Notes under the pieces: model-generated
Databases searched by the model: none
Seen by the model: only the letters and a program-made list of their open reading frames with translations
What the model was told of the DNA's origin: nothing
Sequence record: MN850647.1
Direction: 5' to 3' (one strand)
Length of the DNA stretch: 64,000 nt
Source: Escherichia phage tootiki
Translations under genes and position numbers: made by a program
Shown: in pieces, positions 3,881 to 60,839 of the stretch
Position numbering within the stretch: the stretch's first letter is position 1
How the letters are laid out: every line of letters begins with the position of its first letter

Positions 3881-6023
3881 ATGGAAAACGTAGATTTTAA
3901 AAACTTACATTTGGTTGGTGATACAGAAACTGATGGTTTACTCCTTGAGTTCACTAAAGTTCACGTAATGGCCTTTGCAGACTATAAATCTGACGATGAA
4001 GAGCCACCTGTATGGGTCTTTACAGATGAGCCTATCCTCGGTCACAAGTACACTAAGTACATTAAGGGTGGTTTACGTGAAGGTGTTGAGTTTGCGTTAA
4101 AGGCAAAACGACTTTGTATCCATAACGGCCTCGGTTATGACTGGTGGGTCTTCAATCACATTGCACCGGATTTATGGAACTTTGATAATCCAAAATGTAA
4201 GCCGTGGAGTAATTTCTTTCAGGATTCTCTTATTCAGTCTCGTGTTCAGTGGATGGATAGACCAACTCCAAAGGGTTATAAAGGTGCTCATGGTTTGGCT
4301 GCATGGGGTGCTCGTGTTGGTGTTCGTAAACCAGAGATTGAGCATTGGGGTGTATGGAATGCAGAAATCTTCACTCGTGTTGTAGAAGATATCCGTATTA
4401 ATGCCAAAACTAAACGGGCACTTGATAACGAGTATCTCAAGCTTAAGAAGTGTGGTATAGACACTTATGAGACTTACATGCGAGCTAAAGAGACATCTTT
4501 CTGGATGAGCCAGCAAGCTATCAATGGTTGGAAAGCTGATAAGGAGCTTATGGAGTTCCATGTAAAGGAACTTGACAAGTTGACTAATGAGCTTGCTTCA
4601 GAGGTTGAACCACATCTACCTCCAACTATTAAGACCAAAGGTAAAGTGACTGGAGAAGAGTTTGCAAAAGCTTGGAATGAGTATGTTGAAACATTTGGTC
4701 ATGCAGATGGACTGAAGAGAATTACCAAGTACCCTAAGACAAAGTACCGTCAGCAGGTACGTAACGGTGAGATGCAGACATACGAAATCAAACCATTTGG
4801 TAAGCCAACTACAAAGATTTTTAATATTGAAAAGAGAAATTGCTATACACCAACCAACTCTGTAACTGGTGAAGAGTACAAAGAGGGTTTTGTAGCGATG
4901 AAGGATGCTCGTGCAATCTGCAACGAGTTGAATGCAAAGATTGGCAAAAAATGCAAAGACTGGAAACCAGTAAAAACAGTCAAGACTGTGAAGTACTATA
5001 ACAGTCACGTTGTCAATCACTTTGAACTTGAGTCAAGTCGCTACACAGGTTTGATTGATGCACCATATACACCAATTGAGTTTGAAGTTTCTCGTATGAC
5101 TCAGGTAGCAGTTGTTAAAGACTACTTGAAATCAGTTGGTTGGATTCCAGATGACTGGAATTACAAGAAAGACTCAGATGGTCGCCCTATCAAAGTTTGT
5201 CGTTTCAAAGACAATAAAAAGATGATTACAAAGCATCCTAAGTGGCAGGAAATGGTTGAGCGGTGTGGTTTGAGTTATGTTGAACATGAAGGTGTACAGT
5301 ACATCGAGCATAACTGGTCTGTGAAGAAATACACAGATTTGCTTGAACCTTGCTTAATCCGTACTTCACCAAAACTTACTGAGTCATCTTATGATACGAT
5401 TGAAGGTGAACTTGGACAGAAGATTGCTAAGTACTACACTTTGATGCACCGACGCAGAACTATTGAGAACTCAAAGGATGATGAAAAAGGTTGGTTGAAC
5501 CAGATTCGTCCTGATGGTCGCCTTAGTGCTGGTGCAATGGTATTTGGTACTTCAACTGGACGTATGACACAATATGGTATTGTAAACGTACCGTCTGGTG
5601 CTGCTGTCTATGGAGCACCTATGAGGGAGGTGTGGACTTGTGAAGATGGTACAGATATCATCTCCGTAGACCAAAACTCAGCCCAGCTAGTTCTTCTTTG
5701 TAACTTTATGGGTGATGAAGACTTCACTAAAGCAGTAACCGAGGGTAAAGAGTCAGTAGAGTTCACTAAGCAAGATGATGGTAGGTACTACTGTAAGCAT
5801 CTTGACAAGTATCTTAACCCAGAAACTGACAAGTATCTGCGTTATGATGCTGAGAATGACCTCTATGAAGTCTACACAGGGACTGATGCGCATACACTGA
5901 ACAGTATTTACTTTGGTCTGAACAAGGAAGAAGATATTGTTCGTTGTAGGGAGACACAGGATGATGAGCTTCTTCACGAGATTACAAAAGGTCGTAAGAA
6001 GGCTAAGAATGGCATTTATGCGT
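3881..6023 (+). CDS. DNA polymerase, family A (T7 gp5-like), exon 1 (3'-5' exonuclease and N-terminal polymerase domain)
   Basis: ATG at 3881 after GGAGG; Exo I motif LVGDTETDGL; reading frame ends inside motif B (RKKAKNGIYA) and is followed by an in-frame stop at 6062. Confidence 0.85.
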
Positions 6024-6291
6024 CAGTGGCGCATGTAAAACGTTGTGAATTGCTGGAAGCCTAAGTCTGTAAAGATATGGTAATCAGCAGCGAAGCCTCT
6101 TAAGAGGAACGTTCAGAGACTATCGAAAAGCATACTTAACGTATGAACTGAGTAGAGTAGGGTGGTAAGCTAATGACCATCCCCAAGTGCAACGGTAGCA
6201 CCACTGCTACGTGATATAGTCCGACACTCCGTAGAAATGCGGAGAAGTTCATAAGAGAACTGGTACACCTTGCGAGTGTATTGACCAGATG
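6024..6291 (+). ncRNA. group I self-splicing intron (ORF-less) interrupting the DNA polymerase gene
   Basis: Q-like AATCAGCAGC (6082-6091), R element GTTCAGAGACTA (6111-6122), S element GATATAGTCC (6213-6222); 5' exon ATGCGU can pair with intron GCGCAU (6029-6034) as P1 with U.G at the splice site; intron ends in G at 6291. Confidence 0.65.
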
Positions 6292-9738: not shown

Positions 9739-9895
9739 ACTATGTTCAGTACAGTCATTCTGTTTATACTGGTTGTCTTTGTATTGTCATACGTTGCAAG
9801 TAAGCTTTTGGACACATCTTTTGCAATGGGTGTCTTGTTTACAATCTTTTGTTTCGTGACACATATAGCTATCAGAACTTTTTTATAAAAAGTTG

Positions 9896-9923
9896 TTGAC
9901 ATAGAAAATTTGGTGAGTATACT
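9896..9923 (+). promoter_or_regulatory. sigma70-type promoter candidate
   Basis: TTGACA (9896-9901), 16-nt spacer, TATACT (9918-9923), AT-rich upstream sequence. Confidence 0.5.
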
Positions 9924-9959
9924 GAGCAGCATAAACCAACGGGTACTCACCAACATCAC

Positions 9960-10230
9960 TTAAGAGTCTTTGAAAAGGGTTTTTTAAGTGATGTGGGGCG
10001 AGGCTCGGTGAGGTGGGGTAAGGCATAGTGCGGTGCTGTTTGGTATGGGTAGTTAGTCTCATCTACATTAAAATGAGACTTACCTTTTTAAAAGGTCTTT
10101 AAGAGGGTTTTTTAATGAGGTAGGGTAAAGTAATGCTTGGTCTGGTTTGGTAAGGTGCGGTCTGGTTTGGTAAGGTAAGGTTCGGTATGGTATGGGTGGA
10201 TGGTAGTATCCACGTTAAAAATCTACCAAG
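9960..10230. repeat. intergenic G/T-rich repeat region with GGTCTT-containing motif
   Basis: Tandem GGTCTGGTTTGGTAAGGT x2 (about 10138-10177), GGTAAGG/GGTATGG runs, AAAAGGTCTTTAAGAGGGTTTTTTAA box. Confidence 0.5.
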
Positions 10231-10285
10231 TTTCTAAAGAGTCTTCTGTTGAGGGTTCTTTACAAACAACTTAACAATCAACTAA

Positions 10286-10891
<606 letters not shown>

Positions 10892-10893
10892 TT

Positions 10894-11334
10894 ATGAATA
10901 CGAAAGCATTAGCAGCAAAGTTTAGTTACGGTGACACTGTATCACATTCTGAGATGGATATCTTCTTAGGTATTGTGAAGCCAACTTATCAAGGTGACAT
11001 TGTTAAGTACGAAGATGAAATGAAGGCTTATTCGCTTACACGTCTAAACCGACTTGAGAAGTTTATTGAGAAGCTTCTTAAAGAAGAGAAGATTTATCTG
11101 GTTGCTTCAATGGGTGTTGGTTATCGTGTGGTTGAACCTAAGCATCAAGCAACTATTGCAAAACGTAAAATGTCTGGTAAGATTGGTCGAGCTTTAAAGC
11201 AAGCCACTCAAGCAATTGAGAATGTGAACACTATGGCACTTAGCCATCAAGAACGTTCACGACTAATTGAACAGCAAAACCATTTAGCTGCTATGAAAGC
11301 TAACATTAACAAGCAACGTAGAAAACCTTTCTAA
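10894..11334 (+). CDS. hypothetical protein
   Basis: 146-aa ORF followed by a hairpin plus T-run terminator. Confidence 0.6.
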   Translation: MNTKALAAKFSYGDTVSHSEMDIFLGIVKPTYQGDIVKYEDEMKAYSLTRLNRLEKFIEKLLKEEKIYLVASMGVGYRVVEPKHQATIAKRKMSGKIGRALKQATQAIENVNTMALSHQERSRLIEQQNHLAAMKANINKQRRKPF

Positions 11335-11342
11335 GTTGACTA

Positions 11343-11369
11343 GGCAGCCTCTTCGGAGGCTCCTTTTTA
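11343..11369 (+). terminator. rho-independent terminator
   Basis: GCCTC-TTCG-GAGGC hairpin followed by TCCTTTTT. Confidence 0.6.
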
Positions 11370-11460
11370 AAAGGTCTTTAAGAGGGTCTTTTAACAAGGT
11401 ATTGTATGGTGTAGTTTGGTTAGGTATGGTTAGGTGTGGTAAGGTAAGGTATGGAAGGAT
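11366..11460. repeat. second copy of the GGTCTT box and G/T-rich repeats
   Basis: TTAAAAGGTCTTTAAGAGGGTCTTTTAA, then GGTTAGGTATGGTTAGGTGTGGTAAGGTAAGGTATGG. Confidence 0.5.
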
Positions 11461-11578
11461 AGCAGTAGCCTTATAAAAAATCTGCCAAATAAGCTATAAA
11501 ATCTGTTGACAGGTCAGGTGTTATAGCTTATTTTTATACTCAATGTAATACAAAATTTAATATAACTTTGAGGTCATT

Positions 11579-11962
11579 ATGAAAAAGGTTTTATTAGCTG
11601 CTGCAATGGTTATGGCAATGAATTTACCAGTTAATGCAACAGAACTTCCAAATGTGGACTTATCAGGTGTTCCAGAAGACACTTGCCAGATTGTTAAAGG
11701 TGTTGCTCTATCTAAAGGTGAGCTACTTAAACCAATCTCTGAAGAGTCTTTGACAGAGATGACTGATAAGGTAACTGACTACCAGTATCGCGTTCTTGCA
11801 GAGTATTTCCTGCAATCTGCAAATATTAAAGAGAAGCACCATGATGATATTGATGTACAGGCTATGCTCAACCATCGTATCCAGTTTAAAGAAGATTTGA
11901 TGCAAAAAGCTATGTACGGTGTTGAATATTTCTTAGAAAACAGAAGCTGCACAGGTATTTGA
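11579..11962 (+). CDS. putative secreted protein
   Basis: N-terminal signal peptide MKKVLLAAAMVMAMNLPVNA. Confidence 0.6.
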   Translation: MKKVLLAAAMVMAMNLPVNATELPNVDLSGVPEDTCQIVKGVALSKGELLKPISEESLTEMTDKVTDYQYRVLAEYFLQSANIKEKHHDDIDVQAMLNHRIQFKEDLMQKAMYGVEYFLENRSCTGI

Positions 11963-14162: not shown

Positions 14163-15062
14163 ATGTCACAAGCTGATTTGAGTTACAAAAATATCCTGAA
14201 CCATGTTCTATCTGTTGGTGAACTGCGTACTACACGAACTGGGGATGTTATCTCTGCATTTGCTCCACCACAGTTTCGTTTTGATATGCGTACTGGTTTC
14301 CCACTCTTAACATCTAAACAGGTGTTTACACGGCAAGTTATTGGGGAAGCTTTATGGTTCCTGAATGGTGAGAATAAACTTGGCGAACTCCGTTACCGTA
14401 CTTGGGGTGAAAATGATGGGGAACGTTGGACTATCTGGTCAGATGATTTTAAACGCTGGTTAAGCTCTAACTATTCTTCTGAGCAAGACTGGTTAGAAGA
14501 TGCAGGTGGGAGAATCTACGGGGTTCAGTGGAGAAACTTTGAAGGTCATAACGGTTGTGTTGTAGACCAGTTAGAGACCTTAGTAACGAAGATGAAAGGT
14601 GATATCACAGACCGTTACATGCTTGTTAATGCTTGGAATGCAGCAGATATTGCAGCAAACTCAATGGCTTTAGCACCTTGTCATGTCCTGTTTCAGATTT
14701 ATATCACTAACGAAGGTGAAGTTGACTTACAATGGTATCAACGTTCTGTAGACACCTTTTTAGGACTTCCGTTTAATATTGCGTCTTATGGTTTTATTCT
14801 GGAAGTTCTTTGTAAGATGACTGGGTACACTCCACGATACTTGATAGGTGTCTTTGGGGATACTCAGATTTATCAGAATCATATGAAGCAGGTTTATGAA
14901 CTGATGAACAACGAAGAGTTCCATGCACCTACTTTTGAGATTGGTGTACCACTTAACACTTTAAGTGACTTAAAACATCTTACTGCAAGTGACTTTATTG
15001 GTGGCATCAACAACTACAAACATGCAGGAAAGATTGAAGCACCTTTGTCAGTAGGTAAGTAA
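14163..15062 (+). CDS. thyA: thymidylate synthase
   Basis: FPLLTSK, GVQWRNF, LAPCHVLFQIY and QWYQRSVDTFLGLPFNIASY active-site motifs. Confidence 0.85.
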   Translation: MSQADLSYKNILNHVLSVGELRTTRTGDVISAFAPPQFRFDMRTGFPLLTSKQVFTRQVIGEALWFLNGENKLGELRYRTWGENDGERWTIWSDDFKRWLSSNYSSEQDWLEDAGGRIYGVQWRNFEGHNGCVVDQLETLVTKMKGDITDRYMLVNAWNAADIAANSMALAPCHVLFQIYITNEGEVDLQWYQRSVDTFLGLPFNIASYGFILEVLCKMTGYTPRYLIGVFGDTQIYQNHMKQVYELMNNEEFHAPTFEIGVPLNTLSDLKHLTASDFIGGINNYKHAGKIEAPLSVGK

Positions 15063-15106
15063 AAACAAAAAAGGCTCCCGTCAAAAGGAGCCTTAAAATT
15101 TTATTT
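15061..15106. terminator. bidirectional rho-independent terminator between convergent genes
   Basis: Hairpin AGGCTCC/GGAGCCT flanked by an A-run (T-run on minus strand) and TTAAAATTTTATTTTT. Confidence 0.6.
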
Positions 15107-15472
15107 TTCAGTATTCTTTGTGTTCTTCTCAGTAATAGCTTGGAGGGCTGATACTGATTGAGCCAGATTATTCACACTGTCAGAGAATTTATCAAGAGTT
15201 TTGGTAAGTTTTGCGTTTTCACCCTTAACATTCTCTAACTGAACTTTCTGGTTCTCCATCCCTAGCTGAATCAGTCTCATGTCAGACTGTAAATCACGAA
15301 TAGCTGAATAGTTACTTTTGGAATAATTATCTAGCTGTTGTAACTTTGTTGTGACAGACACTTCTTGCTTACCACTTGAAACTTGCATAGTGGTATACAT
15401 CCCAATAACACTAAAAATACCAACTACAATTGCACCAATATTATTTTTAAAAGCTTCCTCTAGCCACTTCAT
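15101..15472 (-). CDS. membrane-anchored coiled-coil protein
   Basis: N-terminal hydrophobic segment then heptad-like sequence. Confidence 0.5.
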   Translation of the reverse strand: MKWLEEAFKNNIGAIVVGIFSVIGMYTTMQVSSGKQEVSVTTKLQQLDNYSKSNYSAIRDLQSDMRLIQLGMENQKVQLENVKGENAKLTKTLDKFSDSVNNLAQSVSALQAITEKNTKNTEK

Positions 15473-19295: not shown

Positions 19296-27314
<8,019 letters not shown>

Positions 27315-27315
<1 letters not shown>

Positions 27316-39016: not shown

Positions 39017-39092
39017 TGGAGAATCCGAAGGGACTCGAACCCTTATAAACCTGTTCTGCAGACAGGTACATATCCATTTCTGTCACGGATTC
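39017..39092 (-). tRNA. tRNA-Cys (anticodon GCA)
   Basis: Cloverleaf by eye: acceptor GAATCCG/CGGATTC, anticodon stem CCTGT/ACAGG, loop CTGCAGA, T-loop TTCGAGT, CCA encoded. Confidence 0.7.
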
Positions 39093-39096
39093 AAAT

Positions 39097-39189
39097 TGGA
39101 GGAAGATACCAGACTTGAACTGGTACACCGATTTCTCAGCTACTGGCAGTTTAGCAAACTGCTCCCTTACCTTTTAGGGTTAATCTTCC
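39097..39189 (-). tRNA. tRNA-Ser (anticodon GCT), long variable arm
   Basis: Acceptor GGAAGAT/ATCTTCC, anticodon loop TTGCTAA, 21-nt variable arm, T-arm ACCAG-TTCAAGT-CTGGT. Confidence 0.7.
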
Positions 39190-39190
39190 A

Positions 39191-53449: not shown

Positions 53450-55086
53450 AATATCTTAAGAGCCTCCTTAATTGGGGGCTTTTTAATTTTTATAAAATTT
53501 TATCGGTTGTCCCAACCTCTGGGTCACCATCATATGTGAATAAAATATCTACCCTTCTTAACAACCTTCTTAATCTTACTCTCTATATAGTTATATAGTA
53601 CTATATAGTATCTTAGTAACTATCTAGTGGTCTTAATAGCCCTCTGTATAGCCCTTCTAAATAGCCTTCTAAACACTCTTCTAACAAGCCCTCTTAACCA
53701 CCTATACAATCACCTTAACCATCCCTCTACACCCTCTTAGAAGCTCCTATACACCTCTTAATCTCTAGGTTAGCTATGGCACTCTCTATAGGTGTTCACT
53801 AGGTAATACTAAGCCTCTATATAGACTGTTTTAACAAACTTAACAGGAATATCTTTACAGACCTTACCTCACAAGGTCTAACACGGTACTAACAAGGTAT
53901 CTTGTAAGCCTGTTTCTACCTGTATTTTTAAAAGACTGTATAGGTAATTATTCAGAATTTTAAAATTTTTATAAAATAGGACTATCAAGTCATTTTTTAG
54001 GGTCTTTGAAGGAACTGAAAAATATCTGTCTAGGATGTATATCTGCTTGGTAGCCCTTAACAGCTCCCTTACAAGTACTTTGCAAAATTTTAAAATATCC
54101 TTAACAATCTCTTAACAGTTCTCACATCTTCTTAACAACTCTTCAAAGGTCTTAACAGATTCTTAACAGAACTAACAAGGCTGTAACAGTTTCTTAACAG
54201 TTGATACATAATCTTTACAGAGGCTTAACAGATGACTAACAAGAGCTAACAAGTTAATTTTAAAGAGTTATTTTGTTAAGATTATTAACAAGTTTCTAAC
54301 AAGTCTTTAATCTTTTTAACAAGCTATTAACATGGTCACTATCTCTTTCTTATCGTTCCCTTTCCTTTCTTAGTGATTCTTTAAACATACCTCTTAAAAG
54401 CTCTCTATAGCTCTTTATAAGCTCTTTTAAGTCTCTTCCTAGTAGTTACACCCCAACTGTACAGATAGCTCTCTATAGGGCTTTACAGGAGCTTTTAAGG
54501 CTATGTCAAAGACTCTTACAAGGCTTTTACGTGGTCTTAACAGAGATTTAACAAGGGGCTAACAAGTTGCTAACAAGTGTCTTAAAAGCATAACTATGTA
54601 GGGATTGTTAAGAAATTGTTAAGAAAATGTTAAGGGGGCTAGTATTTACGTAACTTTTAAGCTACTTCAAAATAACTTTTAAGCTACTTCAAAATAACTT
54701 TATAGCCCCCTTCTTAGATATTCACAAGATAACTAATGAGATGATAAAGCTTACACCCTTATAAGATTCTTTTAAGGCTCTGGGAAGCTTTATAAAGGGC
54801 TTTTAATGGTGAGGTAATGCAATCCCTTAAGTTAGGTTAATAAGGTCGTTATAGGGCTTTATAGAGCGTTTAAATGGTTGCCCTTCCCTTTCGGGTTATG
54901 GGCTTATATTTAAGTTGATTTGATAAGGGGCTATAGAGTAAGCTATAGAGTTATTGTTTTTTAAGGTCTGATAAGATTCTGGAAAGGAAAGGGAAAGGGT
55001 TGTATAAGGGATTTGATAAGACGTAAAAAAGCCCCATATAAAGGGGCTGTAAAGGTATCTGGGGCTATTTAGCCCCGTTGCGGCGT
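53450..55086. repeat. 1.6-kb ORF-free region dense in short direct repeats (iteron-like)
   Basis: No ORF of 60 aa or more in any frame; many copies of CTTAACAG / CTAACAAG / TTAACAAG, CTATATAG and CTCTATAG motifs; tandem 22-bp repeat at about 54655-54700. Confidence 0.6.
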
Positions 55087-55335
55087 TTAGTTAGTGCCTT
55101 CTTTGTCGTAGTACAAGGAGACAATTTTTTCACCCCAGTAGTGGTATGTATAACCCTCTTTGAGAACTTCCTCTTTTGTTTCTTTCCAGAATTCATCAGA
55201 GGGGTTGTAGTCACTGATGGTCTGGCTGATAAGGCCTTTCACCATTTCAAAGGCGTTATCAGTACCTACAAGGTCAAATTTAACGTCCAGAGAGTAGAAG
55301 CCAAATTCGTTAACAGTTGCGCGGATAGTAGCCAT
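55087..55335 (-). CDS. hypothetical small protein
   Basis: ATG immediately follows the conserved leader module. Confidence 0.55.
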   Translation of the reverse strand: MATIRATVNEFGFYSLDVKFDLVGTDNAFEMVKGLISQTISDYNPSDEFWKETKEEVLKEGYTYHYWGEKIVSLYYDKEGTN

Positions 55336-55441
55336 TTTAGAATCTCCAGTTTAGGAAGTTGATTAAGGGTTTTGTTTAGCGGGGAAGGTCATTCCCTCCC
55401 CGTTGATTGACAATTTACAGACTTTTGATTGTTTCGTCAAT
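55336..55441 (-). promoter_or_regulatory. conserved promoter-leader module, class B
   Basis: Minus-sense TTGACG-N17-TAAATT, leader hairpin CGGGGAGGGAATGACCTTCCCC, then CTAAACTGGAGAttctaaaATG. Confidence 0.5.
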
Positions 55442-55944
55442 ATCTTTTTCAATATCTTTTAAAGTTTTTTCTAAGTTCTTGATATTGAAAGATAAACCTT
55501 CTCCCAGTGTCTTAGAGTAACCGCTAGGACGTGAGTCATATAGTTCAATTTCTTCTACTTCGAAGAGGCTAACCAACTCACCGCTTACACTGTAAGCCAT
55601 TGAAACAGTATTTACAGGGGCTTTATAAAACTTGTTTAAGGACTTGATAGAACGTTCATAAGCCATTTTATAGCTATTTAAAAGGTTTTTAACGTGGCTG
55701 TGAACGTTTTTACACTCATCTAAATAAAGACCTAAAAACATCGGGAGAAGTTCCGCGACAGCTTGCATAAAGTGAGAGACTACAACGGTTGCAACATTAC
55801 GACGATGAACGTAATAAGCCCCGTTTTCTGATTTGGTAATGGTTGCAAAGTGTACCCCATTACAACGAAATTCATAGGTATCTTTAACAGGCTTAGACAT
55901 TACATTATTTGAACGAATATAGTTGATAGCTTTGAACTTGTTCA
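55415..55944 (-). CDS. hypothetical protein
   Basis: Start set at ATG 55944 directly after the conserved leader (ORF track start 56038 lies inside the module). Confidence 0.5.
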
Positions 55945-56037
55945 TTTTAGAATCTCCTAGTTTAAGGACTTTACTTAGTAGGGAGGTTATTGCCTCCCCG
56001 TTGATGAGTAATTTACTTGTTTTGATATCTGATTGCA
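55945..56037 (-). promoter_or_regulatory. conserved promoter-leader module, class B
   Basis: TTGCAA-N17-TAAATT, GGGGAGGCAATAACCTCCC hairpin, AGGAGA RBS. Confidence 0.5.
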
Positions 56038-56167
56038 AGCAATTTTTTAAGTTTATCTATAAAGAATCTTTTAAGTTAATCCCTTTTAGATAAACCCCCT
56101 CGAACAAATCTACCAATGTCAAGGGGCGTTGTCAATACTTTTTTGAAAGTTTTTTGTAAGTTATTGA

Positions 56168-56509
56168 TTAACTGATGAATATTTTTTCAGGTTTTACATA
56201 GCTGATACGCTGACTTTTTAGCAGGTCATCCCAGATTAACGCGGCGATATGGGCATAACCGGATTCACGTAAAAGCTTCATTGTTTTACTTCTCGTTTCA
56301 AAACGGCTTGCGTAGTACTCACTATTTAAAACCGTTTTATTCCCTTCGTTATCTACATGGATAATCTGCATCACTTGAAAGGGGCTTGTGTCCTCGCCTT
56401 TGTTCCACTGTTCAAAGTATTTTAGGCACTGCATAGGTGACATCTTATCACTTACTTGAGTTGACCAAGATGAATTTTCTTTATCGGTAATTACGGTTAC
56501 ATAAGCCAT
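56168..56509 (-). CDS. hypothetical protein
   Basis: 113-aa ORF following the leader module. Confidence 0.55.
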   Translation of the reverse strand: MAYVTVITDKENSSWSTQVSDKMSPMQCLKYFEQWNKGEDTSPFQVMQIIHVDNEGNKTVLNSEYYASRFETRSKTMKLLRESGYAHIAALIWDDLLKSQRISYVKPEKIFIS

Positions 56510-56600
56510 TTTTGAATCTCCTAGTTTAAGGATTGTACTTAGTGGGGAAGGTCATTCCCTCCCCGTTGATTGACAATTTACAGATTTTTATCAGGCTTGT
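56510..56600 (-). promoter_or_regulatory. conserved promoter-leader module, class B
   Basis: TAGACA-N17-TAAATT, GGGGAGGGAATGACCTTCCCC hairpin, AGGAGA RBS. Confidence 0.5.
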
Positions 56601-56834
56601 CTAGTCTTTTTCAATGATAATTTCATACTGACCATCTACGCTGTCAAAATAGATACCGTCTTCATCTTCTGTCTTAAAGTAACATTGTATATCATCACTA
56701 GCGGGATAGTCTTGTCTTGCTATCTGACAGACCTGAACAGCATTTTCTTTACTTCCTGTAAACTCCTCAAGCCCTTTAAAATCACATGAATGACCATTAC
56801 AAATAGAAAGGATAAGATAAACGGTTGTAAGCAT
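56601..56834 (-). CDS. putative lipoprotein/secreted small protein
   Basis: N-terminal hydrophobic segment ending in Cys; preceded by hairpin AGCCCC/GGGGCT instead of the conserved module. Confidence 0.45.
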   Translation of the reverse strand: MLTTVYLILSICNGHSCDFKGLEEFTGSKENAVQVCQIARQDYPASDDIQCYFKTEDEDGIYFDSVDGQYEIIIEKD

Positions 56835-56900
56835 GATTTAAGCCTCTTAAAAGCCCCTGTGAGGGGCTAATCAGTGTTTATAAGGTGATTGCATAGGTTT

Positions 56901-57443
56901 TTAGAAAAAGCTCTTTAAATCTCTCTCTGTGATGTTTCCCGCTAGTGTATCCATGATGTCACAAAAAACCTGAATACTATCCGACTGTTGAATACTTTTA
57001 GCAAGAAGCTCCAGAGACTCATCAAGATAATTTAAATTTGGGTTATCCAATGAAGGAAGACAAAAAGGCGAAAACATCGCATTAAACTCGGTTACGTAAA
57101 CCTTTTTAATCCAATTTAAATCGAAGTATTCTGTAAAACTTGCTACGCCAGACATATTATCACAAGAATAATCATCATTCAGGTCATCCTCTGGGATATC
57201 AAGTTCTAAGATAACAATATTTTGGGTTTTCATCTGGAAAGCGGCCGTAATAGTGGCATTACCTAACGCTTGCTGGATGCCTTCGGCTGTTATCTCTTCC
57301 TCATCGTCGCCATAGATTTTATTTTCTGGATACACGTAAAAATTGCCGTCCATGTCCGAACAATTCCATGCACCTGATGGCTTGTCACCGTTATTAATCA
57401 GGTTGAGGAAATTTTCTTGAGTAGTACCGTGAAAGCATTTCAT
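56901..57443 (-). CDS. hypothetical acidic protein
   Basis: 180-aa ORF following a class A module. Confidence 0.55.
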   Translation of the reverse strand: MKCFHGTTQENFLNLINNGDKPSGAWNCSDMDGNFYVYPENKIYGDDEEEITAEGIQQALGNATITAAFQMKTQNIVILELDIPEDDLNDDYSCDNMSGVASFTEYFDLNWIKKVYVTEFNAMFSPFCLPSLDNPNLNYLDESLELLAKSIQQSDSIQVFCDIMDTLAGNITERDLKSFF

Positions 57444-57535
57444 TTTTGAATCTCCAGTTTAGGATTTAGTGGTAAAGCTCTTTATCTGGGGCTTACTTTA
57501 TCGAACTATAAGCCCCTTGTAAAGTACTTTATTTG
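57444..57535 (-). promoter_or_regulatory. conserved promoter-leader module, class A
   Basis: Minus-sense TTTACA-N17-TAAAGT overlapping hairpin GGGGCTTA...TAAGCCCC, then CCACTAAATCCTAAACTGGAGATTCAAAAATG. Confidence 0.5.
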
Positions 57536-57732
57536 TTATTTTTTACTACTTTTAAAACCGCACGATAGCCTAAGCAATAGGAATCACCGAAGAGCGACCG
57601 ACCCATGAAGGAGTCCTCTGTAATATCTTTCGCCGTGACGGTTTTTTCTACGCCGTGAAAGAGAACTACATCACCGACTTTAATATCTTTGATGTGTGTA
57701 GTTTCAATGGTTAAACCGTTAATAATAGCCAT
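57529..57732 (-). CDS. hypothetical small protein
   Basis: 67-aa ORF following a class B module. Confidence 0.5.
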   Translation of the reverse strand: MAIINGLTIETTHIKDIKVGDVVLFHGVEKTVTAKDITEDSFMGRSLFGDSYCLGYRAVLKVVKNNK

Positions 57733-57842
57733 TTTTGAATCTCCAGTTTAGGACTTTATTTAGTGGGGAAGGTCATTCCCGCCCCGTTGATGTGTAATTT
57801 AATCTATCTGAAAACCAATGTCAACAATTTTTTTTTTTTTTT
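57733..57842 (-). promoter_or_regulatory. conserved promoter-leader module, class B, preceded by A15 tract
   Basis: Minus-sense A15 tract (57828-57842), TTGACA-N17-TAAATT, GGGGCGGGAATGACCTTCCCC hairpin. Confidence 0.5.
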
Positions 57843-58245
57843 AGAGTTCTGCATAAATTGCATCACAGATACCACGAAAATCATGATTTGTCAAATTACG
57901 TTGTAACCAAGTGGCGAAAAAGTCAGCGATTGCAAAGTTAGCGTCATACTCGACAGATAGCCACACTTTAACAGCAAACCGAAACATTTTCAAATCAAGC
58001 TCTTTATTCATTACCTTAGATTTGCCTAACATGTCGGACATTTCATATTGTGCACCGTCTAGCGTGATACCTGCTGCAACGTCAGCCAATGAGTTTTTTA
58101 CGTTTTCAACGTCTAAGATAACGCTTTGAATCTTCCCAATAATGTTGTGCAATGTTTCGTCCGGTGCTGATGACGTAATAACATTAATCCGGTTAACGGT
58201 CAAACGTGCTTTTAAGATTGATAACTCGCGATTATTAATAGCCAT
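57841..58245 (-). CDS. hypothetical protein
   Basis: Start set at ATG 58245 (MAINN...) by leader alignment; ORF track start 58260 lies inside the module. Confidence 0.5.
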   Translation of the reverse strand: MAINNRELSILKARLTVNRINVITSSAPDETLHNIIGKIQSVILDVENVKNSLADVAAGITLDGAQYEMSDMLGKSKVMNKELDLKMFRFAVKVWLSVEYDANFAIADFFATWLQRNLTNHDFRGICDAIYAEL

Positions 58246-58331
58246 TTTTAAGTTCTCCAATTTAGGATTTAGTGGTAAAGCTCTTTATCTGGGGCTTACT
58301 TTATCGAACTATAAGCCCCTTGTAAAGTACT
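58246..58331 (-). promoter_or_regulatory. conserved promoter-leader module, class A
   Basis: Near-identical to the 57444, 59920 and 60299 modules. Confidence 0.5.
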
Positions 58332-58604
58332 TTATACTAAATGCAGCTTTTTACCTTTTACTATGATGTAACTCGATGCGCTATTGCTTTGCACATCCTG
58401 ATAAATTCTGCGCAAACGGCCTTCGTAGTATACTTTCCAACTGGTTGGAATCTTTTTCCCGTATCCTGTAGCAGTTTTTTGTAGTCCTGCAAGTTGCCAA
58501 TCTAAGATATGTTGTTCGGCTTGTAAATCCTCGAAGTGCATTACACCGTTCACATAGTGACGAAGGGTTATGTTTAAGGTGCGACCGTTGTTAGTAGTAT
58601 ACAT
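58332..58604 (-). CDS. hypothetical small protein
   Basis: 90-aa ORF. Confidence 0.5.
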   Translation of the reverse strand: MYTTNNGRTLNITLRHYVNGVMHFEDLQAEQHILDWQLAGLQKTATGYGKKIPTSWKVYYEGRLRRIYQDVQSNSASSYIIVKGKKLHLV

Positions 58605-58690
58605 TTTGAATCTCCTAGTTTAAGGACTTTGTTTAGTGGGGAGGTCATTACCTCCCGTTGATTAGTAATTTACTTGTTTTAAAAACCAAA
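58605..58690 (-). promoter_or_regulatory. conserved promoter-leader module, class B
   Basis: TTGATT-N17-TAAATT, GGGAGGTAATGACCTCCCC hairpin. Confidence 0.5.
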
Positions 58691-58691
58691 A

Positions 58692-59024
58692 TCAAGAGAA
58701 ATTTTTTCGTTTGCTCAATTCTTGAACAATTACAGCGTAGTAGTCTTTTAAGTCACTGACATTTAAAGCATTTATCAGAGAATTATAATCATCGACTAAC
58801 TGAAAATCATCTTTGAAAATGTCGCTGATTTGATAAGTTTTTGATTGAAATCTGAAGCTCATTTCTAGCCGCTTTATTTGCTCATCACTGAGGCGCCCTA
58901 GAAAGCTTTCTACAAGGTTATTGCTAACCTGCTGTGTGATTGCCTTATTTGCTAGATTATAGGCTTTATATGCCTTATATAGCGCGAAAATGGCAATGAT
59001 TGCAGTGATACCAGTCATTAACAT
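58692..59024 (-). CDS. small membrane protein
   Basis: N-terminal transmembrane segment ITAIIAIFALY; not preceded by the conserved module. Confidence 0.5.
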   Translation of the reverse strand: MLMTGITAIIAIFALYKAYKAYNLANKAITQQVSNNLVESFLGRLSDEQIKRLEMSFRFQSKTYQISDIFKDDFQLVDDYNSLINALNVSDLKDYYAVIVQELSKRKNFS

Positions 59025-59314
59025 GGTGTTTCCTCTTTACGTGATACTTTGCCATTTACAGTTATCTCATAAGAATCTAGTAAGTCACTTTTAGACTTTA
59101 CTGGACTTTTAAAAGTATCATCATAAATATTTACTTGCAATACAGGTTTTTTATACTCCCTGCAACTATTCCATAAGCAAATCACTACGCGACGGCCTTT
59201 TATTTTGCCGTGCAACCATTCCATAACATCATGATTATTTCTTGATGTCTCGATAAAATCAATTTTGTTGAGTAATTTGCTCAGATTTTCACGCACTTGA
59301 TTTGATAATTTCAT
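59018..59314 (-). CDS. hypothetical small protein
   Basis: 98-aa ORF following a class A variant module. Confidence 0.5.
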   Translation of the reverse strand: MKLSNQVRENLSKLLNKIDFIETSRNNHDVMEWLHGKIKGRRVVICLWNSCREYKKPVLQVNIYDDTFKSPVKSKSDLLDSYEITVNGKVSRKEETPC

Positions 59315-59400
59315 TTTAGAATCTCCTAGTTTAAGGGCTTTATTTGATAAATCTCTTTATCTGGGGCTATCTTACCAGCTTGATAACCCCGTGTAAAGAA
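59315..59400 (-). promoter_or_regulatory. conserved promoter-leader module, class A variant
   Basis: Same leader 3' end; divergent hairpin GGGGCTAT... Confidence 0.45.
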
Positions 59401-59406
59401 ATCTAT

Positions 59407-59919
59407 TTAGTTCTTAAAGATATTCATCACTGAGTCTTTCAACGATTCCAAACGTTCTAATACTTCAGTTTCTGCGTCTGAATTGTTCACCTCTTCTTTT
59501 AGTCTATCTTCTAAATCCTCACCGTCACTATAGCACCAATCGAAAGCGTAACCAATATAAAAGCTGTCTAAAACCGTTTTACCGTTTGCATCTACAACTT
59601 TCGCGGCAATGTTATACTCTGAAGCTTCTAAATCTCTTTCTAGTTCTTCCTGTAAGCTTGCGTAAGCCTCTTTTGATGGATTTTCCCGGCCTTGTTTTGC
59701 ATAGTCACTAGAAAGCTGCTTAAGGCTGTAATGTAAAGGGATTGCATATTTAAAATCATTACGCTGACAGTTAGGATTTTTAATCGTCACACCACCTTGA
59801 TGGTCATCTGTAAACTTCCAATTATCAAGATTATGGCTTGCTTCAAAGCAATTTACCGCTTCATAGATAATGGTGAATTTTTCTTTTACAACTTCAAAAG
59901 TAGCGTCTACAGTTTTCAT
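59407..59919 (-). CDS. hypothetical protein
   Basis: 170-aa ORF. Confidence 0.55.
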   Translation of the reverse strand: MKTVDATFEVVKEKFTIIYEAVNCFEASHNLDNWKFTDDHQGGVTIKNPNCQRNDFKYAIPLHYSLKQLSSDYAKQGRENPSKEAYASLQEELERDLEASEYNIAAKVVDANGKTVLDSFYIGYAFDWCYSDGEDLEDRLKEEVNNSDAETEVLERLESLKDSVMNIFKN

Positions 59920-60000
59920 TTTTGAATCTCCAATTTAGGATTTAGTGGTAAAGCTCTTTATCTGGGGCTTAAGATATCAACTTTTAAACCCCATGTAAAG
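59920..60000 (-). promoter_or_regulatory. conserved promoter-leader module, class A
   Basis: Shares the leader and first hairpin arm (GGGGCTTA) with the other class A copies; second arm and -35 region divergent. Confidence 0.5.
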
Positions 60001-60004
60001 TACT

Positions 60005-60298
60005 TTATTTGTTAATTTTCAGCTTTGCATAACTTCTCATTGTACGAATGGTGGATGTTAATGCTACGCGTCTAATGTATGCCTTTTTCGTGTATACATT
60101 TGTCTTCCCGATAGTGTTTACACATGTAAAAAGGTTTATCGGTGAATTTTTTAACTTCAACTGTTTATCAGCCTTCACGCCCCACCTTACAGCAGATTGT
60201 TTTCCGTTGTCAACCACTTTCCCGCATAACTTTTTAGCCATAACGCGAGCGTCATCACGAGTTTTTGCAGCAATTACAACGTTTTTGATAATAGCCAT
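60005..60298 (-). CDS. hypothetical protein
   Basis: Start set at ATG 60298 (MAIIKN...) by leader alignment. Confidence 0.5.
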   Translation of the reverse strand: MAIIKNVVIAAKTRDDARVMAKKLCGKVVDNGKQSAVRWGVKADKQLKLKNSPINLFTCVNTIGKTNVYTKKAYIRRVALTSTIRTMRSYAKLKINK

Positions 60299-60384
60299 TT
60301 TTAAGTTCTCCAATTTAGGATTTAGTGGTAAAGCTCTTTATCTGGGGCTTACTTTATCGAACTATAAGCCCCTTGTAAAGTACT
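60299..60384 (-). promoter_or_regulatory. conserved promoter-leader module, class A
   Basis: Near-identical to the 58246 module. Confidence 0.5.
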
Positions 60385-60591
60385 TTATTTATCGTAGTAG
60401 TAAATTGCTGTCTGTCTTGTAAACTTCTTAGTATTTCTTGTCAGATAGCAATTAGAATTAATAGCCGTTTCTACATAGTTGCAATAGTCAGCTTCTGATA
60501 TTCTAGACCATACGCCACAGATTTGCATGTAAAAACGTTTTACCTTTGTGTGAATGTTAGTTGTAACCATCAATTCGCGACTGTACAGCAT
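60385..60591 (-). CDS. hypothetical small protein
   Basis: 68-aa ORF following a leader variant. Confidence 0.45.
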   Translation of the reverse strand: MLYSRELMVTTNIHTKVKRFYMQICGVWSRISEADYCNYVETAINSNCYLTRNTKKFTRQTAIYYYDK

Positions 60592-60839
60592 TTTTAGATT
60601 CTCCAGTTTAGGAAGTGGGCTTGATTGCCCGTCTGATGCAGATATTAGATAACTATACTCAAAGAGTCAATAGGAATTTTAAAAATATTTTTTGCAAAAA
60701 TTGTAATGAAACGGGTGCGCGCGACTACCACAAAACAGAACTACAATCAAGAATTATTTTTCAATCCGCTACAAATTTTTCTGTTGACTTTTATTTCCAG
60801 ATGTGGTAGCCTTGTGAGAAATGGCGACATCCCCACCTG

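Follow-up and report, generated by a model that had tools for sequence, protein, structure and literature searches.

The segment at positions 11340–11490 of Escherichia phage tootiki (MN850647.1; the 64,000-nucleotide stretch analysed here is called the window) very probably encodes a VIPR guide RNA (vrRNA) belonging to the type II or SUSP1 clade. It is an instance of a system that has already been described, from the same clade as the model phage, and does not represent a new kind of element. An earlier note on this DNA had taken the segment for a repeated regulatory cassette. That it is repeated, modular and conserved was borne out; cis regulation of the flanking genes was not, since the GGY/NN architecture of the repeats, a covarying pseudoknot, an adjacent gene for a Vipr protein with 98% identity to that of the model phage and a match to a satellite promoter point instead to a guide RNA acting in trans.

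VIPR was recently described, in two 2026 bioRxiv preprints, as a CRISPR-like RNA-guided DNA-binding system, for which the model is phage SUSP1 of the Ounavirinae (10.64898/2026.04.26.720920; structural companion 10.64898/2026.04.26.720927). According to the first preprint it comprises a phage-encoded minimal RAMP protein of ~20 kDa with an RRM core, G-loop and thumb, Vipr, an accessory gene, vap, and vrRNAs, each made up of 9–16 YNNGG repeats and an invariable tail that is a pseudoknot in the SUSP1 clade; in SUSP1 itself the vrRNAs lie beside vipr and vap, one upstream and three downstream (10.64898/2026.04.26.720920). The companion preprint describes one Vipr protomer per repeat, in a helical filament that buries GGY and presents NN (10.64898/2026.04.26.720927). 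The NN dinucleotides are reported to base-pair with dsDNA, leaving out one target base in three, with no PAM and with either strand targetable, and binding represses transcription (10.64898/2026.04.26.720920). The vrRNA length of ~100 nt, co-purification with Vipr, DNA binding and repression are presented there as experimental results for the SUSP1 and P. fulva systems only (10.64898/2026.04.26.720920, 10.64898/2026.04.26.720927). The system has been proposed to be older than CRISPR. By homology to SUSP1, the region in the window would be transcribed and matured to an RNA of ~90–100 nt consisting of GGY/NN repeats and a 3' pseudoknot; one Vipr protomer would take up each repeat to form a helical filament with GGY buried and NN presented, the NN dinucleotides would pair with dsDNA with every third target base skipped and no PAM, and binding would repress transcription.

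The window belongs to a Felix O1-like coliphage myovirus (Felixounavirus). The region 9800–11800 matches 230 phage records, mostly named for Escherichia or Salmonella and with Felixounavirus records among them, and is closest to Escherichia phage garuso (97% DNA identity). All features of the locus lie on the plus strand in the order promoter, hairpin, vrRNA A, hairpin, vrRNA B, hairpin, vipr, vap1, terminator, hairpin, vrRNA C. A sigma-70-type promoter at 9896–9923 (TTGACA-16-TATACT, 11/12), identical to the one that precedes vrRNA1 in phiSUSP1, would drive the upstream vrRNAs together with vipr and vap1. It is followed by a box hairpin of class I at 9953–9994 (CAUCACUUAAGAGUCUU...AGGGUUUUUUAAGUGAUG; RNAfold −18 kcal/mol and a consensus hairpin with covariation), which stands 5' of vrRNA A (9992–10080). 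The latter has ~11–12 partly degenerate GGY/NN repeats at 9992–10046 and a tail pseudoknot at 10047–10080. A class II hairpin at 10081–10122, supported by the fold and the consensus hairpin, leads into vrRNA B (10119–10227), which has 15 repeat slots at 10119–10193 and a tail pseudoknot, GGGUGG..CUACC, at 10194–10227. Between vrRNA B and the ribosome-binding site of vipr there is a class III hairpin (10230–10267), assigned from the box pattern and the fold.

Within 11340–11490 the order is terminator, RNA hairpin, 11 GGY/NN pentanucleotide repeats and a 34-nt covarying H-type pseudoknot. The intrinsic-terminator-like element that closes vipr–vap1 occupies 11346–11368, with the hairpin AGCCTCTTCGGAGGCT at 11346–11361 followed by CCTTTTT, and its U-run is at the same time the 5' arm of the class II box hairpin at 11362–11399 (5'-CCUU.UUAAAAGGUCUU-UAAG-AGGGUCUUUUAA.AAGG-3'). 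The box string of the window, TTAAAAGGTCTTTAAGAGGGTCTTTTAA, lies at 11366–11393, and the 3' arm of the hairpin extends into the first repeat of vrRNA C. The guide region of vrRNA C, with 11 pentanucleotide slots, is at 11398–11452, and its 3' tail, the H-type pseudoknot, is at 11453–11486. Beyond the tail, a 12-bp inverted repeat (11488–11499 with 11521–11532) and a U-run, together spanning 11488–11534, enclose the −35 element of a promoter-like site at 11506–11534 (TTGACA-17-TATTTT); this inverted repeat is likely to mark where the vrRNA transcript ends and the next operon begins. The box, G/T-rich run, terminator and TTGACA site that the earlier note had listed are thus all present where it had put them, with the cassette between the terminator and the promoter-like segment. 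Its span of 11340–11470 located the element correctly and ended it too early, as the element runs to 11486. A small ORF with a TTG start at 11336–11476 (46 amino acids) overlaps the structured RNA and found no support as a gene.

The product of vipr (10304–10891), predicted to be a minimal Cas7-like RAMP of 195 residues, is identical at 191 of 195 positions to phiSUSP1 ALH47069, whose ORF lies directly 3' of SUSP1 vrRNA1, as the cloning description given in the preprint requires. It keeps nine of the ten named RNA or DNA contact residues (H17, K33, E71, M72, R138, C173, D177, W178 and R179), and none of its four differences to the SUSP1 protein falls on these; the tenth, T175, is V175 in both proteins. 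The AF2/AlphaFold model built from a 66-sequence alignment has a pLDDT of 95.3 (a single-sequence AlphaFold prediction, pLDDT 45, was unusable). When this model was compared with the PDB using Foldseek, the best 50 of 51 matches at E ≤ 0.001 were all CRISPR effector complexes or RAMP subunits. Those listed are of type III Csm/Cmr and type VII, the subunit being Csm3 wherever one is named; E-values start at 3.7e-5, the probability is 1.0 for almost all of them, and TM-scores are ~0.4–0.5. The protein models as a Cas7-type RAMP. It has no Pfam match and falls in PHROG 4652, function unknown; Pfam and PHROGs searches with eight neighbouring proteins gave nothing useful. The adjoining vap1 (10894–11334) encodes a 146-residue protein identical at 145 positions (99%) to phiSUSP1 ALH47068, and its designation as a VIPR accessory protein follows the preprint. 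The association of array and protein extends beyond this clade: when unrelated IMG/VR loci were collected solely by the DNA pattern (GGTNN)6GGT, 36 of the 120 proved to contain a gene for a Vipr homologue, in several cases immediately next to the array.

The window and SUSP1 have in common the gene order, the GGY/NN repeat, the tail classes, the promoter, the terminator and the hairpins between vrRNAs, and they share a target class, a satellite with Ounavirinae-like tail genes, that is matched through the same code with one skipped nucleotide. They differ in that the host of the window system is a Felixounavirus and SUSP1 a Suspvirus, in that two arrays lie upstream and one downstream in the window whereas SUSP1 has one and three, and in that the NN sequences of the window guides are unlike those of the four SUSP1 guides.

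The G/T-rich run of cassette C (11398–11454) is a strict array of period 5. Its slots read GGUau UGUau GGUgu AGUuu GGUua GGUau GGUua GGUgu GGUaa GGUaa GGUau, that is nine GGU triplets, one UGU and one AGU, a number of slots within the 9–16 repeats of a vrRNA, and its NN string is AU AU GU UU UA AU UA GU AA AA AU. The pattern (GGTNN)4GGT with at most one mismatch occurs 14 times in the window, always within 10139–10196 or 11408–11455, against an expectation of 0.00 from 100 shuffles. Tandem Repeats Finder reported periods of 5, 10, 15, 20 and 25 at the locus. The direct repeats of 23–50 nt with unique spacers of similar length that characterize a CRISPR array are not found there, where the periods are 5–25 nt only; beside the multiples of five, repeat finding detects the duplication of the whole cassette. 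The second copy that the earlier note had recognized, near 10087–10210, is real: cassette C aligns with 10083–10175 over 93 nt at 77% identity (repeat family D13). The likeness is concentrated in the box and the GGT frame, and the dinucleotides between the GGT triplets differ. A third copy, more degenerate, occupies ~9950–10085, and a fourth box, without repeats, is at 10237–10259.

Comparison of the copies in related phages, which the earlier note had proposed, proved informative. Among 19 related loci, taken from IMG/VR contigs, GenBank phages and phiSUSP1, the unit is conserved, always with a 5' box, 7–19 pentanucleotide slots and a 34-nt 3' element that occurs in several covarying versions, and there are one to three units per intergenic region; phage heid, for example, carries three units downstream against one in the window. 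Statistics were drawn from 50 unique vrRNAs of the clade with 626 slots. Position 1 is G in 79% of slots (0.95 bits), position 2 is G in 99% (0.13 bits) and position 3 is a pyrimidine in 100% (0.51 bits), and positions 4 and 5 accept any base (1.91 and 1.88 bits). The last NN, AU, is nearly invariant (38 of the 50 guides) and is for that reason perhaps part of the tail rather than of the guide.

These statistics bear on the idea that the cassette is purely structural, its GG tracts forming a G-quadruplex or its GT-rich run serving as a recombination or R-loop hotspot, so that it would be a terminator, a stabilizer or a signal for replication or recombination, with no sequence-specific guide function. 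GG runs spaced 3 nt apart can form two-tier quadruplexes, the sense strand is in all cases the G-rich one, and the arrays of several unrelated contigs end in GGTAAGGTAAGGT and a T-run, at the usual positions of terminators. However, quadruplex formation requires no exact 5-nt period and no pyrimidine at position 3, and yet the pyrimidine is there in every one of the 626 slots, while position 1 tolerates A or U in 21%. Moreover, the covariation of pseudoknot and hairpin speaks for an RNA that is folded and bound by protein, the guanines in the cryo-EM structure of the SUSP1 complex are held by protein (10.64898/2026.04.26.720927), and the NN-to-target matches described below would be left unexplained. 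We regard a purely structural role as extremely unlikely.

The tail of vrRNA C folds into two stems, S1 (11455–11458 with 11469–11472) and S2 (11461–11465 with 11482–11486), with an A-rich loop 3. Over 16 distinct tails, 92% of the cells are paired, compared with 28–39% in slid controls, and nine of the 11 pairs show changes on both sides. Each of the three tails in the window agrees at 33 of 34 positions with tail sequences present in phiSUSP1; for vrRNA B the partner is the tail of phiSUSP1 vrRNA1 (33/34). In the tail of vrRNA C a G-to-A change at 11461 creates an A.C opposition at the outer pair of S2. The topology and the A-rich loop 3 are shared with preQ1-I-like pseudoknots, but there was no Rfam match to these at E ≤ 10. 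In fact, Rfam at gathering thresholds returned only tRNAs and a group I intron for the whole window, and a search of 9850–11600 at E ≤ 10 gave only noise (E ≥ 1.6).

E. coli genomes were searched with the locus. Units resembling vrRNAs are present in 91 E. coli chromosomes, in unannotated DNA, and lie in an island of ~11.5 kb that carries genes for a large serine recombinase, a baseplate protein, a tape-measure protein and an HNH endonuclease, as well as small ORFs. The island is integrated at wrbA–ymdF, at tonB–yciI or inside a DUF72 gene. Its baseplate protein has 68% identity to the phage product encoded at 24290–25063 and its tape-measure protein 32–45% identity to that encoded at 25090–27315, homologies that fit a satellite of these phages. 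The first satellite locus (L140) is full of IS elements, and intact copies were used. None of 14 satellites encodes Vipr.

Guide–target matching was assessed by running the 50 clade guides against 14 satellite variants under the code with one skipped nucleotide, with an NN match of at least 80% as the cut-off. With a skip of one, 34 of the 50 guides reached it; with skips of zero, two and three nucleotides the numbers were 0, 1 and 2, respectively. The one-nucleotide-skip code is thereby reproduced computationally from public genomes alone, which constitutes independent support for it. In SUSP1-clade phages, 18 of 20 assignable guides are reported to target a satellite in E. coli genomes (10.64898/2026.04.26.720920). 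Under the one-nucleotide-skip code vrRNA C matches 20 of 22 positions (91%) in four satellites and 18 of 22 in two more, at one and the same site throughout. None of 300 order-shuffled guides attained the 20/22 score, and the other skip rules gave at most 77%. Within the window there is no self-target, the best match being 16 of 22 (73%), and a search of IMG/VR for the exact guide C pattern gave no match.

The site matched by vrRNA C is ATGCTAGTATTGTAYATATAAGTTAACAGAAT in the satellite and ATGCTAGTATTGTACATATAAGTTAACAGAAT in E. coli SCU-387 (NZ_CP051688.1, ~1825503–1825534). It overlaps the −10 element (TAGTAT) and the start region (−10/+1) of a promoter, TTGACA-17-TAGTAT with an extended −10 TG, that is predicted by consensus scan only, and it lies 30–61 nt before the first gene of the long leftward satellite operon, at whose far end are the tape-measure and baseplate genes. 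Phage heid has a variant guide, with TG and AG in place of TA and AA, and this guide matches a satellite variant that has TGA and AGA at those slots, which looks like guide–target co-variation. The target region is found in 377 of 5426 complete E. coli genomes (~7%). We infer that vrRNA C guides the silencing by the phage of a satellite that would parasitize it, and that this long leftward operon would be silenced during infection. The assignment of a guide to the −10/+1 region of the main satellite promoter makes the conflict between phage and satellite directly testable in Felix O1-like phages. Phages of this group are used in typing and biocontrol.

The NN string of vrRNA A matches 19 of 22 positions in the satellite serine-recombinase gene, in frame, such that the skipped bases fall on codon wobble positions. 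For vrRNA B there was no match of at least 80% on the 14 satellites. Its ten-slot core has one exact in-frame match, in a gene of Hafnia phage yong1 that is annotated as a tail fiber assembly protein and that, read from its sequence, would encode a tail-fibre protein. The matched sequence is absent from E. coli genomes; for this reason, and because ~0.1–1 chance matches were estimated for the scan, yong1 was rejected as the target of guide B.

The target results also weigh on a reading in which the cassette is a cis-acting leader or attenuator like those controlled by TRAP, an oligomeric protein binding 5-nt-periodic GGU triplets so as to control termination or translation of the flanking genes. 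TRAP sites consist of 9–11 (G/U)AG triplets with spacers of 2–3 nt and are bound by an 11-mer β-ring. Both have a periodicity of ~5 nt, a conserved triplet, sequence-free spacers of 2 nt in the present case, and one subunit of an oligomer per repeat. The modal span of 11 slots is suggestive, cassettes A and B lie in a 5' leader and C between a terminator and a promoter, and the second stem of the copy A tail followed by UUACCUUUUU has the look of a terminator. Yet the triplet is GGY and not (G/U)AG, the adjacent protein is modelled as a Cas7-like RAMP, expected to form a helical filament, and not as a TRAP fold, and no neighbouring protein has a Pfam match to TRAP. The predicted fold contains no alternative antiterminator pairing with the terminator. 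The spacers carry targeting information, as the 34 of 50 guides match a foreign satellite under a skip of one and not under other codes, which places the action in trans on DNA and not in cis on a terminator. In the satellites, in addition, the repeats and tail stand as an independent gene that has its own promoter and terminator, and there is no gene downstream for it to regulate. A TRAP-like leader is highly improbable on this evidence.

If the cassette is a vrRNA gene, it might nevertheless be a decayed one, a remnant of a longer downstream array, with expression or loading now lost. Among the points that count against a functional vrRNA gene are the UGU and AGU triplets (two of 11), the A.C opposition in S2 and the best target match of 91% rather than 100%; the first two of these would suit decay, as would the position directly behind a terminator and the single downstream vrRNA of the window, relatives having as many as three. 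Against this, at least five loci of the sample retain the identical NN string, and the UGU and AGU slots are conserved in the relatives that share it, which does not resemble random decay. A base other than G at position 1 is in any case found in 21% of clade vrRNA slots, and the specific match lies at a promoter. Decay is very unlikely in our view.

Nevertheless, the expression of vrRNA C calls for comment. A promoter scan found no convincing promoter of its own, and the cassette follows a strong-looking terminator; expression would therefore need read-through or an unrecognized promoter. In SUSP1 the vrRNA in the same context is reported to be expressed (10.64898/2026.04.26.720920), and by analogy vrRNA C would be transcribed, matured and loaded with Vipr. 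A literature search for a Felixounavirus transcriptome gave nothing useful.

Class 1 CRISPR systems, in which a crRNA is held in a Cas7 filament, offer a close comparison. Common to both are a RAMP fold with a G-loop and thumb, one protomer per RNA segment of fixed length, periodic base flipping, a variable guide joined to a conserved structured handle, and RNA-guided recognition of invading DNA. VIPR, in contrast, has no repeat–spacer array, adaptation genes or PAM; its guide is noncontiguous, with two of every five RNA bases reading two of every three DNA bases; and it is carried by a lytic phage and directed at a competing mobile element, with repression and not cleavage as the outcome.

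Two other candidates were considered for the cassette. The GGTAAG strings might be a decoy for BREX, but they are a by-product of GGY/AA slots, and the BREX labels in the record of phage Tribble lie elsewhere. The antisense strand is C-rich, as a Rho rut site would be, but there is no evidence for one. That a reading of the raw sequence picked out a vrRNA indicates that such scans can surface this class of element.

The 5' hairpin is the part of the unit that we wish to flag, being conserved and a likely maturation signal. The 'GGTCTT box' is not a DNA box; it makes up the apex of a ~17-pair RNA hairpin. In the alignment, 95.8% of the cells are paired, compared with 49–70% when slid, six pairs have compensatory changes and the covariation score is above those of all 500 shuffles, although the covariation comes mainly from three hairpin classes and so represents few independent events. 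The apical GUCUU/AGGGU contains nearly invariant G.U and U.G pairs. The structure is accordingly read on the sense RNA, because the complementary strand would have C.A mismatches. The box pattern occurs four times in the window, always at the VIPR locus, where 0.34 are expected. A boxA/nut-like antitermination signal was rejected: GGUCUUUAA resembles GCUCUUUA, but the box is specific to VIPR within the window and forms a hairpin. No Rfam family matches the apical GUCUU/AGGGU with its invariant wobble pairs, and no mention of the 5' hairpin was found in the available text of either VIPR preprint (10.64898/2026.04.26.720920, 10.64898/2026.04.26.720927).

The hairpin is most likely a signal for maturation, or for a unit boundary, by which vrRNAs are freed from the operon transcript. 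In support of such a role, it precedes every phage-borne vrRNA and the vipr ORF, and is absent from the satellite vrRNAs, which are free-standing with their own promoter and terminator. Furthermore, a mature length of ~100 nt excludes the hairpin, and at the equivalent position in other VIPR types there are hammerhead ribozymes, which lie between the vrRNAs of types I and V (10.64898/2026.04.26.720920). The stronger proposition, that the box is a dedicated hairpin with a covarying lower stem and an invariant, wobble-rich top, recognized by its sequence and structure, that defines the 5' ends of vrRNAs in type II VIPR loci, is one we advance tentatively and with slightly less than even confidence. 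RNase III or a phage factor may cleave at the hairpin, or the hairpin may halt the Vipr filament as it grows in the 3'-to-5' direction. Like the early RNase III sites of T7, the CRISPR repeat hairpins and the hammerheads of VIPR types I and V, the box is placed where cleavage would release individual units; it differs from them in being a putative cleavage signal, with an apical GUCUU/AGGGU outside any Rfam family. If this assignment is true, the hairpin would couple the maturation of vrRNAs to the production of vipr mRNA, and the box would be the type II counterpart of the CRISPR repeat hairpins and of the hammerhead ribozymes that separate vrRNAs in other VIPR types.

The vrRNA genes A and B, located upstream of the RAMP-protein gene vipr, occupy window positions 9950-10267 together with their box hairpins, the conserved RNA hairpins found 5' of phage vrRNAs. 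Guide A, with its NN dinucleotides compared with DNA under a code that skips one nucleotide, matches at 19 of 22 positions within the serine-recombinase gene of the E. coli satellite. The match is in frame with the recombinase codons and the skipped base corresponds to the wobble position. Guide B had no target at a match of at least 80% in the 14 satellites searched. The only exact match to its core is in a single gene of Hafnia phage yong1, for which the record gives the product "tail fiber assembly protein"; this match is compatible with chance.

The satellites carry a vrRNA gene of their own, placed at 14927-15122 in the copy from E. coli SCU-387 (L141) and with equivalents in L140-L153. 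This gene combines a GGY/NN array and a covarying tail, GGGUGGAUUGUCGUAGCCAC..CGAC, with its own sigma-70 promoter and terminator. Neither the vipr gene nor the box hairpin is present in these satellites (L140-L153). Lacking their own vipr, they would therefore need to borrow Vipr from the helper phage.

The third vrRNA gene of the phage locus, vrRNA C, differs from 17 related copies in its tail, where position 11461 is A rather than G (GGAUAGCAG versus GGAUGGCAG). As a result of this A, stem 2 of the pseudoknot has A.C as its outer pair in the window. Beyond the tail, the segment 11488-11534 holds an inverted repeat with perfect 12-bp arms (AATAAGCTATAA / TTATAGCTTATT) and, after it, a U-run; the -35 hexamer of the promoter that follows lies within the repeat. 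The repeat may serve both to terminate the vrRNA transcript and to occlude that promoter.

In unrelated environmental phage contigs from IMG/VR (L019-L138), GGY/NN vrRNA-like units form long tandem arrays with as many as 13 units in a row, for example at 2217-3404 of L038, 3396-3841 of L028 and 3331-5316 of L027. The linkers between units are short and specific to each system (AAGGCTAATG or GGAATGGTTTAATGAATTTAATTT, for instance), and many of the arrays lie directly 3' of a gene for a Vipr homologue. Presumably these represent other VIPR types.

In a structural preprint (10.64898/2026.04.26.720927) a contact in the pyrimidine pocket is named T175. Residue 175 of Vipr is valine in the window protein (codon 10826-10828) as well as in the GenBank entry for the phiSUSP1 protein, and the mismatch is probably a slip of numbering or typing in the preprint text.

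Other RNA elements in the window are a group I catalytic intron on the plus strand at 5961-6244 (Rfam RF00028, 61.3 bits, E 4e-13) and a cluster of 23 tRNA genes on the minus strand at 39020-44210.

Short tandem repeats are densely packed at 53580-54700; most notably, at 54100-54233 an 11-nt unit, CTTAACAGATT, is repeated about 13 times. Similar words, CTTAACAG / CTGTTAAG, are found in the satellite's right arm, which is non-coding (L141 13990-14700); the words common to both may be regulator or origin sites, mimicked by the satellite. Further along, at 55300-60620, there are several families of intergenic repeats of 40-128 nt, probably reiterated promoter/terminator modules. Each family is present four times; examples are TTTAGAATCTCC... 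and a hairpin, GGGGAAGGTCATTCCCTCCCC, followed by TTGACA-like words.
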